From a bacterium (GTDB taxonomy: Bacteria; Electryoneota; Electryoneia; Electryoneales; Electryoneaceae), in NCBI GenBank assembly GCA_963669175.1, contig OY769902.1, positions 5,120,001-5,184,000 of the forward strand: a stretch of DNA of 64,000 bases, written 5' to 3'. How positions within the stretch are numbered: the stretch's first letter is position 1; each line of letters starts with the position of its first letter. The notes beneath the pieces are model-generated. The model saw nothing but the letters and a program-made list of their open reading frames with translations, did not search any database and was not told the origin of the DNA. Of the stretch, positions 35,057-37,098 are shown in pieces. The position numbers and the translations under genes were made by a program.

Positions 35057-35194
35057 AAAAAGTGGACAGTGAAAAAGGTGAAAAAGGAAATGAGGAATCA
35101 GCGAATGGCTCTTCGTGTATCTCAACAACAATAATTTAGCATAGTTATTCTGCTATGTAAACAGTCAAGGGTGTAAAGAGCCTTTGTATCGTCC

Positions 35195-35370
35195 CATGTG
35201 CCGTTCTGCTATTCGTGCTCGTGGCACAAGTTTTTTGTTCGCACGGAACAGCGGCGCCCTAAACTCGAATCGTTGTCAAGCAACAGAATAACTACCAGGG
35301 TCGCGTGTTCCCAATGGCATCGGACGATTCAATCACAATCTATGCTTTACCTACCTGCCAGCAGTGCTGG
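35195..35370 (-). ncRNA. Predicted bridge RNA / seekRNA of the IS110 element (ends approximate)
   Basis: Two internal-loop modules whose guides match the target (10/10 and 5 nt) and the donor (4 and 7 nt). Confidence 0.82.
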
Positions 35371-35372
35371 GG

Positions 35373-36434
35373 TTATACGCAGGCAGGATTGTAGTCTTGT
35401 TCTTTGACCAGCATGGCCCACAGTATCACGGCTAGTTTTCGTGCCATGGCGACGATCGCCACTTTCCGTGTTTTCCCGGCATGGATCGCATCGTATTTCT
35501 TCTTTGCATACGGATCTTTTTGCACCCAACGCCACGCAGCTTCGACCAATAGTTTTCGTAGATGGGACGGTCCCCAGTGGGTAATGTGTCCCATATGGCG
35601 TGTGTTGGCGCTTGACCATTCACACGGCGTCAAGCCAAGATGTGCGCCGACTTGCTTACCGGATGCGAAGCGTTCGGGACGATACATCTCGGTCACGAAG
35701 GCGTTCACGGTCAACTCGCCCACTCCCTTCACCTGGCGCAGGCGCTGGGTACGGTCCCGATACGTTGCGGACGCATTCATCGCCTTGATCGCTTTGGTGA
35801 TCACCTTGAGTTGCTGTTCAATGGCCTCCAGCTCATCGAGAGCAACATCAATGGCTATCCGTGTCGCGGCCAGACAATCACACGTTCGCAACCAGCGCCG
35901 GTATTCCTTTGTCCAATAGCGTTGCGGCGGAAACGGTGACTGTAAACCGTGAAACAATAGCAGACTCTTGATTCGGTTTTTGACCCGAACGCGATCATTC
36001 ATCACCTGGTCACGGGTGCGAGACAACTGACGATCCGCCTCTTCCTGTTCTGTAGGGACATGTACCCAGGTACGGGGCGGTGTCCAGAACATGTGGGCCA
36101 AGGTCAGGGCATCCAGATGATCGGTCTTCTGCTGCTTCGCTTGCGCCCCTTTGGGAACTTGGCTGGGCGGCGCGATCTGGCAGTCAACACCTTGGCCGAT
36201 CAGGTAACGACAGAGGCCAAAGCCGGTGAGGCCCGCTTCATAACACGCCCACATGCGGCAGTTGGGAAAACGGGCAAAGAAGCGTTCCCAGGCGGCTGAG
36301 TCATGCTTGATCCGATTCTCAAAGAGCACTTCACCAGTCTGGGTGTCGAGCACAACGGCGAAAGAAGTCTGCGAATCAACATCCAGACCTATAGACAATG
36401 AACGGTCCGCTGCAATAACTTGGTTCTTCGACAT
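35373..36434 (-). CDS. IS110 family transposase/recombinase
   Basis: DEDD: 'GLDVD', 'YEAG', 'KTDHLDA'; C-terminal 'RFASGKQVGAHLGLTPCEWSS', 'AIVAMARKL'; AAGGAG RBS. Confidence 0.96.
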   Translation of the reverse strand: MSKNQVIAADRSLSIGLDVDSQTSFAVVLDTQTGEVLFENRIKHDSAAWERFFARFPNCRMWACYEAGLTGFGLCRYLIGQGVDCQIAPPSQVPKGAQAKQQKTDHLDALTLAHMFWTPPRTWVHVPTEQEEADRQLSRTRDQVMNDRVRVKNRIKSLLLFHGLQSPFPPQRYWTKEYRRWLRTCDCLAATRIAIDVALDELEAIEQQLKVITKAIKAMNASATYRDRTQRLRQVKGVGELTVNAFVTEMYRPERFASGKQVGAHLGLTPCEWSSANTRHMGHITHWGPSHLRKLLVEAAWRWVQKDPYAKKKYDAIHAGKTRKVAIVAMARKLAVILWAMLVKEQDYNPACV

Positions 36435-36628
36435 GGCGCTTCTCCTTGTGTTGGAAAAATGGAATACTGCTAAGATAGCAGTTCCAACACGACTTGATGC
36501 GCCTGTCGTTTAACATAGGAACTCGATTTTATTCCGTCATCATGGAGATTGCCGGGAAAAGGGGACAGGATCCTTTTCCTCACCCTCAAACAGAATACTC
36601 TTGCTGAATCTGTGGAACAGGAAACTAA

Positions 36629-37098
36629 CCCGAATATTTCATGAACGGAACATGGATATTCATCTTAACACAGTTCATATCAACACAATACAACTGATTC
36701 ATACAGCATTTTTCAGGGGACAGTTTGCTCCGGTATCCCTTTGCGTGTCTATTCCCTGTTTCGCTGGCAAAATAGGCTGAGAATCGGCAACCGCCCCGGC
36801 AGGGGCAACCTGTATTAGCCCCGGGCAGCCGCCGTCAGTTTGGCGGCTACCCGGGGAGATAATGCGCACCATATATTTACTCCGGAAGGAGTAACCTGAT
36901 AATTATCAAAAGTATACAGTGGAAATATTCAGGCAACCCGCTGCCGGGGTTGGCAAGTAGCGTACATCCTATTCCCACCGTGAGCGCCAAACAGACGGCG
37001 CTGGACGGTGGGCTAATACAGAGAACCACTGCCGTGGTTCTTGTACTGGCCATTCCATCAAATACCAAATTTGAAATTGCATTGGTGAAATATTCGGG
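36629..37098. mobile_element. MITE-A copy 2 (470 bp, inverted relative to copy 1, TSD CTAA)
   Basis: CCCGAATATTTCA / TGAAATATTCGGG; CTAA at 36625-36628 and 37099-37102. Confidence 0.9.

Follow-up and report, generated by a model that had tools for sequence, protein, structure and literature searches.

The transposase gene of an IS1111-group insertion sequence in the window (the whole 64,000-nt stretch that we analyzed) is preceded by a leader in which a hairpin beside the ribosome-binding site, here called P2, bears an 11-nt sequence identical to the inverted circle junction of the element's own joined ends. There is good support for the hairpin, for selection on it within one group of lineages, and for its sequence identity with the inverted junction. 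Judged from sequence, the feature is real, non-random, and lineage-restricted, and it lies inside the conserved leader of a well-defined IS1111-type element. RNA-guided self-regulation through this junction copy is a plausible possibility with strong rivals, and a resident promoter or a relic of duplication appears about as likely.

The transposase matched PF01548 (5.3e-18) and PF02371 (8e-20) in Pfam and NF033542, "IS110 family RNA-guided transposase," in NCBIfam (247.8 bits; cut-off, 140). By its domains, end layout, subterminal repeats, and site-specific insertion, the element belongs to the IS110 family, IS1111 group. Twelve copies are present in the genome, and the copy in the window is flanked by a CT core at 35150-35151 and 36522-36523. 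The element ends and core were fixed from these 12 filled sites and 19 empty sites, the latter being uninterrupted copies of a host repeat. In 18 of the 19 empty sites, ...TT is followed by CTCGA...; at the filled sites the right core is CT in 12 of 12, and the left core is CT in 8 of 12 and CC in 4 of 12. The four copies with a CC left core occupy other targets (right flank CGAAAG.. or CGAAGA..), and the CC/CT split suggests a mismatch between donor and target cores that was settled differently on either side. In an independent assembly run, a collapsed repeat contig ended at 35152 and 36524, and 11 loose contig ends at 36522 matched the empty site. An element spanning 35152-36521 with CT on each side gives joined ends of ...GGAA, CT, GCTAT... 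on the plus strand, and the reverse complement of GGAA-CT-GCTAT is the leader 11-mer. The circle junction that the original prediction had assumed is thus borne out by the 12 copies and the 19 uninterrupted target sites. No contig spanning the circle junction was seen among the assembled contigs of four runs; those of the RNA-labelled run X4 included two 151-nt contigs inside the transposase gene with 95-99% likeness.

Table 1. Features of the element and its leader, in window coordinates.
Feature	Position	Strand	Basis or detail
IS1111-group insertion sequence, 1,370 bp	35152..36521	-	copies, flanks, empty sites
Right-end non-coding region, 221 nt, encoding predicted bridge/seek RNA	35152..35372	-	guide matches
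Right subterminal inverted repeat (35153-35162) and junction-promoter -35 TTGACT (35163-35168)	35153..35168	-	sequence
Donor guide AUAGCAG	35206-35212	-	complementary to core and right end
Inner hairpin, donor-side loop	35215-35227	-	
Short left-donor-guide-like AACU	35229-35232	-	
RTG	35264-35271	-	match to right target flank
LTG	35286-35295	-	match to left target flank
Transposase/recombinase, 353 aa, DEDD_Tnp_IS110 and Transposase_20	35373..36434	-	ORF, Pfam, NCBIfam
Transposase start codon (CAT on plus strand)	36432-36434	-	ORF
Leader fold; P1 = GGCGC (36499-36503) with GCGCC (36435-36439), enclosing P2 and Shine-Dalgarno sequence	36435..36503	-	predicted fold
Shine-Dalgarno sequence AAGGAG, 7 nt before ATG, adjoining P2 (plus strand: CTCCTT)	36442..36447	-	sequence; conserved in alignment
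Hairpin P2	36448..36490	-	outer stem 36448-36456/36482-36490; inner stem 36464-36470/36474-36480
11-mer GGAACTGCTAT (sense strand) = inverted circle junction; left-end positions 37-47	36475..36485	-	sequence, counts, shuffles
Left terminus TTC and left subterminal inverted repeat, including junction-promoter -10 TATGTT (36512-36517)	36508..36521	-	sequence, relatives
Host repeat start carrying insertion target (...TT, CT, CGATTT...)	36522..36626	+	flanks, empty sites

The non-coding ends measure 87 nt (left) and 221 nt (right), the longer one lying 3' of the transposase gene, and this short-left, long-right layout is repeated in all 20 related loci in which both ends are present. The subterminal inverted repeats, CTATGTTAAAC at 36508-36518 and GTTTACATAG at 35153-35162 (sense strand), differ by one indel and sit 3 nt (left) and 1 nt (right) from the cores. 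When the ends are joined, TTGACT, 17 nt, and TATGTT form a predicted junction promoter whose arrangement is conserved in relatives, with TTGAC kept in 20 of 20 related loci whose right end was found. We also observed an outward promoter-like site at the right end (35133-35161, minus strand), with a -35 box, TTTACA, inside the subterminal repeat and a TG-extended -10 box, TAAATT, that falls in the flank of the window copy.

The insertion lies at the beginning of a host repeat made up of two modules (window positions 36522-36626 and 36625-37000 and beyond). The 105-bp first module has at least 19 further uninterrupted copies of 83-91% identity, each reading ...TATAGCTGTT and then CTCGATTTTATTCC, and the adjoining module has more than 40 copies. 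Within the host repeat lies a long, GC-rich, perfect-looking palindrome (36812-36865) for which both strands gave Rfam matches below threshold (F6 sRNA, 26.9 bits; gathering score, 46). Inside the element, Rfam returned no family at E values up to 1.

The original prediction required correction in its anatomy, as a bridge/seek RNA with its donor guide is encoded 3' of the transposase gene and the leader hairpin belongs to a family-wide leader fold. Two stretches of the right-end RNA, UAGUUAUUCU and GAUUCGAG, match the left and right target flanks at the 12 copies and 19 empty sites, and in the predicted fold they lie in an internal target loop. A further motif of this RNA, CGAAUAGCAG, contains AUAGCAG, and all 19 rows of related elements retain the guide motif CGAATAGCAG. 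Guide variants occur as AUAGCUG in L048, L050, and L051 and as AUAGUAG in L042, all four from clades in which the leader motif is missing. In three of these four elements the variant guide matches the element's own right end and core, which supports the donor-guide assignment. On the plus strand, the donor-side inner hairpin (35215-35227) is followed by a T run and was listed as terminator-like; from its sequence, this site could stop antisense transcription entering via the right end.

Confirming the prediction of an exact inverted 11-nt copy, plus-strand positions 36475-36485 read ATAGCAGTTCC, which reproduces in inverted form the 11 bp spanning the junction (GGAA, CT, GCTAT). The 11-mer holds all positions readable by both donor-side guide stretches, the 7 nt of AUAGCAG and the 4 nt of AACU, and the similarity extends weakly beyond it (14/17 against the inverted right end, by eye). 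Positions 36461-36472 of the plus strand read GGAATACTGCTA, so the sequence proposed as a second, interrupted copy is present there, but it represents no more than the opposite hairpin arm. Across the 5.45-Mb genome we counted 14 occurrences of the exact 11-mer against 2.6 expected, and 12 of the 14 are the 12 element copies. A chance likeness is unlikely because only 1 of 2000 leader shuffles reached 11/11; by our own arithmetic, if any 11-mer from the 20-bp junction is allowed at any position and on either strand of the 1,370-bp element, the expectation is about 0.007. With up to one mismatch allowed, the whole window yielded one match against 0.96 expected, so that the significance lies solely in the exact match at the leader site.

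The 11-mer was also considered as a known subterminal inverted repeat, an identity that we rejected since the motif sits at left-end positions 37-47, outside the range of such repeats, and takes in the core together with the first 4 nt of the element's own end. In a pattern scan of viral contigs, at least 118 matches to the motif were found, and none of the 84 loci retrieved encodes a transposase relative, so we regard the viral matches as chance. A regular-expression search for the motif over all other loci collected matched only integrated right-end junctions.

The leader of the transposase gene is 87 nt long, and its stretch from the predicted junction-promoter start to the AUG folds with a minimum free energy (MFE) of -29.3 kcal/mol (z, -4.92), a stability equaled by 0 of 200 shuffles. 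In the predicted fold, helix P1 ties the 5' part of the leader to the stretch between the ribosome-binding site and the AUG, and the Shine-Dalgarno sequence and start codon are enclosed in structure, as in leaders that occlude the ribosome-binding site. The 11-mer forms the 5' arm and first loop bases of P2, whose outer arms on the plus strand are GTGTTGGAA at 36448-36456 and TTCCAACAC at 36482-36490. A stem abutting the AAGGAG ribosome-binding site had been predicted and is indeed present, with its start one base away from the position first given (36448 rather than 36449). By eye, UUUUUCC between the P2 3' arms (36448-36470) can pair with the Shine-Dalgarno stretch GGAGAAG, including two G-U pairs, and the leader of the window's element may toggle between folds in which the Shine-Dalgarno sequence is open and closed.

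Most of the 19 related leaders that we folded likewise contain a long-range helix to the stretch from the Shine-Dalgarno sequence to the AUG and an inner hairpin, and in 12 of the 19 the hairpin sequences are unrelated. In the distant IS1111 members IS5075 and ISEc45, the left repeat is also predicted to pair with the Shine-Dalgarno-to-AUG stretch. Because related leaders and those of IS5075 and ISEc45 fold alike, we regard the hairpin adjacent to the ribosome-binding site as part of a family-wide leader fold. Complementarity between the left subterminal repeat and the Shine-Dalgarno-to-AUG stretch was observed in L240:889-948 (IS5075) and L241:819-873 (ISEc45) and also in L061, L065, L075, and L082. 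In distant IS1111 members, the ribosome-binding region is by this complementarity a third copy of the repeat in right-end orientation; this may be a general leader design of the IS1111 group, and we did not find it stated in the available text of PMC11187229 or PMC11208160.

In all seven leaders bearing the motif, GGAACUG is paired in the MFE fold, with compensated arm changes in L049 and L040. CUAU is unpaired in the loop in four of these seven predicted folds, and stem pairing therefore does not explain its conservation. We rejected P2 as a donor-binding loop of the bridge RNA or a circle-specific extension of that RNA since its two arms pair together (MFE and centroid folds; 7/7 relatives) and because the right-end RNA already holds both donor-side guide stretches. 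Duplex predictions between the whole leader and the right-end RNA, compared with shuffles, gave long, loop-ridden duplexes and no significant signal in 17 of 18 elements; the one exception, L040 (p = 0.025; 40 shuffles), was discounted as one of 18 tests. In the window's element, P2 was listed as terminator-like, its inner hairpin (7 pairs, 3 of them GC) being followed by AUUCCAUUUU. We rejected its assignment as an intrinsic terminator or attenuator, as the U run is absent after P2 in L045, L040, L049, L037, and L039.

Related elements, collected from genome searches and metagenome contigs, encode transposases 44-56% identical to that of the window's element (designated REF). Nineteen distinct elements were counted, with L020 merged into L045, L046 into L047, and L023 and L025 into L018. 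The closest transposases stand outside the leader comparison (P0002, 85%; P0003, 64%; P0004, 60%; P0006-P0011, 53-58%; and the partial P0005, 80%). Transposase matches were found in 6 of 79 genomes of the window's phylum, including the window's own, and a further search of genome contigs gave three loci; 401 genomes of the phylum of L014 gave no transposase match at an E value of 1e-70. Common to the relatives are a left-end start of TT(C/T)CTAT, a right end of ...TTGAC-N11/12-ATAGC, and the guide motif, and their core reads AG in the sense direction, with TG, GG, or AA in a few.

The motif occupies the same leader position in 7 of the 19 elements: REF, L045 (with its decayed twin L020), L037, L039, L040, L038, and L049. 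The match to the element's own junction is 11/11 in REF, 10/11 in L045, L037, and L039, and 9/11 in L049, and the motifs of L038 and L040 carry indels. Of the 12 elements in which the motif is absent, 11 score 6-7/11 (shuffle p, 0.61-0.99), and the leader of the twelfth, L043, whose contig holds no right end, was judged by eye. Since these 12 elements have a guide that is the same or differs by one base, the system can do without the motif. In the transposase tree, the seven motif bearers fall in three deep lineages that form an unresolved polytomy with two motif-less clades, a topology with which a single origin of the motif would be compatible. Conservation of the motif in homologs, proposed earlier as a check on the prediction, was thus found in 7 of 19 elements at about 50% transposase divergence and failed in 12.

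Within the seven motif-bearing leaders, the majority fraction is 0.78 for the P2 5' arm and loop start, 0.48 for the rest of P2, and 0.52 for the linker, compared with 0.84 for the terminal repeat and 0.88 for the Shine-Dalgarno sequence. The best-kept part of the motif is CTGCTAT, which is complementary to the conserved guide AUAGCAG, and the single-base variants in L037 (CTGTTAT) and L020 (TTGCTAT) are C-to-U changes that still allow wobble pairing with the guide. Covariation with the junction had been proposed as a further check. The motif tracks the left-end start (TTCC, TTTC, or ATTC) in L038, but no such tracking is seen in L045, L039, or L040: L045 and L039 go the opposite way, and the L040 motif is broken by an indel. 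In L049 (ATTC start), agreement is limited to the core-adjacent base. With so little variation in the right end and core, covariation of the motif with the junction cannot be shown.

No junction copy of this kind was found in the leaders of other IS1111 clades (L064, L065, L075, L076, L080, L085, L090, and others) or in those of IS5075 and ISEc45. In L048 (core TG, guide AUAGCUG), GAACAGC-G-TAT just upstream of the Shine-Dalgarno sequence (L048:592-604) is a one-insertion copy of the element's own variant inverted junction, at a leader position that differs from that of the P2 motif; this copy is probably a chance occurrence, as the relatives L050 and L051 are without it.

We rank first a reading in which the element recognizes its own leader, because the 11-mer holds all that both donor-side guides read and because its best-kept part is the guide complement. 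The leader would control transposase output, with P2 placed between the junction promoter and the ribosome-binding site, inside P1. In the window lineage, P2 would have become a look-alike of the donor junction on which the element's own transposase-RNA complex would dock, with the guide AUAGCAG pairing with CUGCUAU in the P2 loop and 5' arm. The complex would dock either to the leader RNA or, about 25-35 bp downstream of the predicted junction-promoter start, to the DNA, and both modes would damp expression beside the ribosome-binding site. We put forward leader control of output, with P2 as a docked donor-junction look-alike, as a tentative possibility in which the binding and the effect on expression are what we infer. 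That the complex recognizes the mimic, as RNA hairpin or as duplex DNA, through AUAGCAG and thereby throttles its own synthesis is a claim that, from the sequences compared, we consider doubtful.

Speaking for recognition of P2 by the element's own complex are the rarity of 11/11 identity among the shuffles, its carriage by 12 of 12 copies, and the recurrence of the motif at one leader position in seven elements of three deep lineages with transposases about 50% identical. The motif segment is kept nearly as well as the Shine-Dalgarno sequence (0.78 and 0.88), with CUAU left unpaired in four of seven folds; the L037 and L020 variants retain wobble pairing with the guide, and guide variants fit three of four elements. 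A precedent exists in ISPpu9, in which the 5' untranslated region folds over the ribosome-binding site and is tuned by element-encoded small RNAs (PMC8450116, available text). Against this stand the 12 of 19 elements that lack the motif despite the same or a one-base-different guide, the tracking of the left-end start in L038 only and partly in L049, and the pairing of GGAACUG in the fold, where it is not freely accessible. Furthermore, CTGCTAT is interrupted in L038 and L040 although TATATT is retained in both, a pattern more in keeping with a -10 box than with guide pairing. According to the available text of PMC11187229, a short seekRNA with the target-recognition regions sufficed for ISEc11 transposition, so that RNA reading of the donor in IS1111-type elements is not established there. 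A different account of the same bases is one that we regard as possible but open to considerable doubt: integrated copies would transcribe the transposase gene from an extended -10 promoter (TGnTATnTT) whose -10 box is the P2 loop, giving a short leader without the P1 and P2 5' arms. TGnTAT would then be kept for the promoter and GGAAC for the hairpin, and the junction likeness would be inherited from a duplicated end segment, the subterminal repeat itself carrying the junction-promoter -10. In 16 of 19 leaders, those of motif-less clades among them, the last base of a TAnnnT hexamer lies 34-49 nt before the ATG; such a hexamer is missing from L053, L019, and L047. The hexamer is preceded by TGn in REF, L045, L037, L039, L049, L017, L041, and L042; within the motif group, the hexamer in the P2 loop is TATATT, TATCTT, or TATCGT, and TGn precedes it in five of seven. 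A TTGCCT or TTGCCA box lies 16-17 nt upstream in L043, L048, L050, and L051, the variant base of L037 is the free "n" of TGn, and native promoters are reported for ISPpu9 and ISPpu10 (PMC12288879, available text). In REF, however, the -35 box is unusable (2/6), the -10 box is only TATCTT, and a promoter scan did not list the P2 site; a promoter alone also leaves the five further matching bases, GGAAC, unexplained. On sequence grounds, the regularity of the hexamer would be explained by a resident extended -10 promoter no less well than by guide pairing.

Most related leaders also fold as P1 plus an inner hairpin of unrelated sequence in 12 of 19, IS5075 and ISEc45 likewise pair the left repeat with the Shine-Dalgarno-to-AUG stretch, and the stem changes of L049 and L040 are compensated, all of which favor P2 as an ordinary leader hairpin serving mRNA stability or translation control. 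Its likeness to the junction would then date from an old duplication or be accidental and would play no sequence-specific role today, and the free pattern search by which the motif was first noticed inflates its apparent significance. We judge this unlikely, given the rarity of an 11/11 match and the far better conservation of the P2 5' arm and loop than of the 3' arm at about 50% protein divergence, which is not expected of a purely structural hairpin. Fold-back inhibition of read-through transcripts is known from IS10. A similar sensor in the present element would work through RNA that crosses the junction or enters from the flank (AUAGCAGUUCC or AGUUCC) and pairs with the P2 5' arm, refolding the leader so that outside or second-lap transcripts are translated differently from junction-promoter transcripts. 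The perfect 11-nt complementarity of junction-spanning RNA to the P2 5' arm, which is the same fact as the finding itself, agrees with such a sensor, as do the AUUCCAUUUUU that follows the terminator-like inner hairpin of REF and the co-transcription thought to link the transposase mRNA and right-end RNA (PMC11187229, available text). Since the U tract is absent after P2 in the five relatives named above, and since sequence alone cannot separate a sensor from the other readings, we give it a low probability. Equally improbable to us is a cis-acting DNA site, in which a half-site at left-end positions 37-47 would be a second docking point of the recombinase complex for synapsis, excision, or circle handling. 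In its favor, the motif falls inside the outermost 50 bp of the left end, a length kept in the still-mobile ISEc11 mini-element (PMC11187229, available text), repeated end boxes giving alternative circles are known in ISPpu9 (PMC12288879, available text), and the 14/17 similarity to the inverted right end, by eye, reaches beyond the 11-mer. The leader site is not used for recombination: 12 of 12 right halves are joined to their left half. All 12 genomic occurrences are intact, both predicted target joints occur 0 times, and no truncated element copies end at the site. The flanking subterminal repeat is missing on one side, and 12 of 19 relatives lack the site altogether.

In its general design, the window's element resembles ISEc11, IS5075, and ISPa11, members of the IS1111 group with a 3' bridge/seek RNA (Siddiquee 2024, PMC11187229; Durrant 2024, PMC11208160; available text). 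It shares with them a DEDD and Transposase_20 recombinase, short left and long right non-coding ends with subterminal inverted repeats, and a promoter, here predicted, assembled at the junction, as well as site-specific insertion without duplication beyond the 2-bp core and right-end RNA guides that match both target flanks. Unlike the IS1111 elements described in these texts, it has an internal inverted junction copy in its leader. Our literature search found no description of a junction copy in an IS110 or IS1111 leader, including in the main texts, without supplements, of PMC11208160 and PMC11187229, and no bridge-RNA-based autoregulation, including in the available text of PMC13626964, PMC12288879, and bioRxiv 10.1101/2025.10.25.684509. 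The terms "autoregulat," "UTR," and "decoy" were not found in the available text of PMC13626964, and the accessible part of bioRxiv 10.64898/2026.09.15.751765 is unrelated to a leader junction copy.

The closest parallel for the leader is again ISPpu9 (Gomez-Garcia 2021, PMC8450116, available text), an IS110-family element whose transposase leader folds over the ribosome-binding site, as is predicted here, and whose expression is adjusted by small RNAs that the element encodes both upstream and downstream of the gene. According to the same text, the ISPpu9 regulators are an antisense RNA and a second small RNA that sequesters it, with no donor-junction mimic or recombinase-RNA complex, and its 5' untranslated region is long compared with the 87-nt leader of the window's element. 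In IS1111 elements, the subterminal inverted repeats measure 11-13 bp and are found at distances of 7 and 3 bp from the ends (PMC11187229, available text). Like these repeats, the P2 motif is related to the element ends, sharing CTATnTT, but it is located 37-47 nt into the element, and it reproduces the core and the first 4 nt of the opposite end as well. Similar to the donor loop of a bridge RNA, P2 has a left-donor-like GGAACU and a right-donor-guide-like UAGCAG in the order found in the element's own right-end RNA. Unlike in a donor loop, these stretches are mutually complementary over 10-12 nt and pair, leaving no internal loop to read DNA, and 1.2 kb separate P2 from the target-binding loop.

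Autogenous control by molecular mimicry is known from ribosomal-protein and ThrRS operators, in which a leader by the ribosome-binding site imitates the normal nucleic-acid substrate; unlike in these operators, the mimicked substrate here would be a DNA junction read by RNA guides. How natural elements limit their own expression and how IS1111-type ends are recognized are open questions (PMC11187229, PMC13626964; available text). The complete, well-bounded IS1111-type element reported here, with its target, donor, guides, junction promoter, and leader fold, comes from a little-studied phylum and is useful even if the motif is a promoter box or a relic. Bridge/seek-RNA recombinases are in development as programmable genome-insertion tools. 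If recognition of the leader by the element's own complex is true, the guides would serve regulation as well as recombination in a compact, reprogrammable feedback module, and donor-like sequences inside constructs could titrate the complex, a warning for engineers. It would also amount to autogenous control that is RNA-guided and based on substrate mimicry, and to the first case of a bridge-RNA guide put to a regulatory rather than a recombination use, through which the junction copy in the leader may let the element sense itself.
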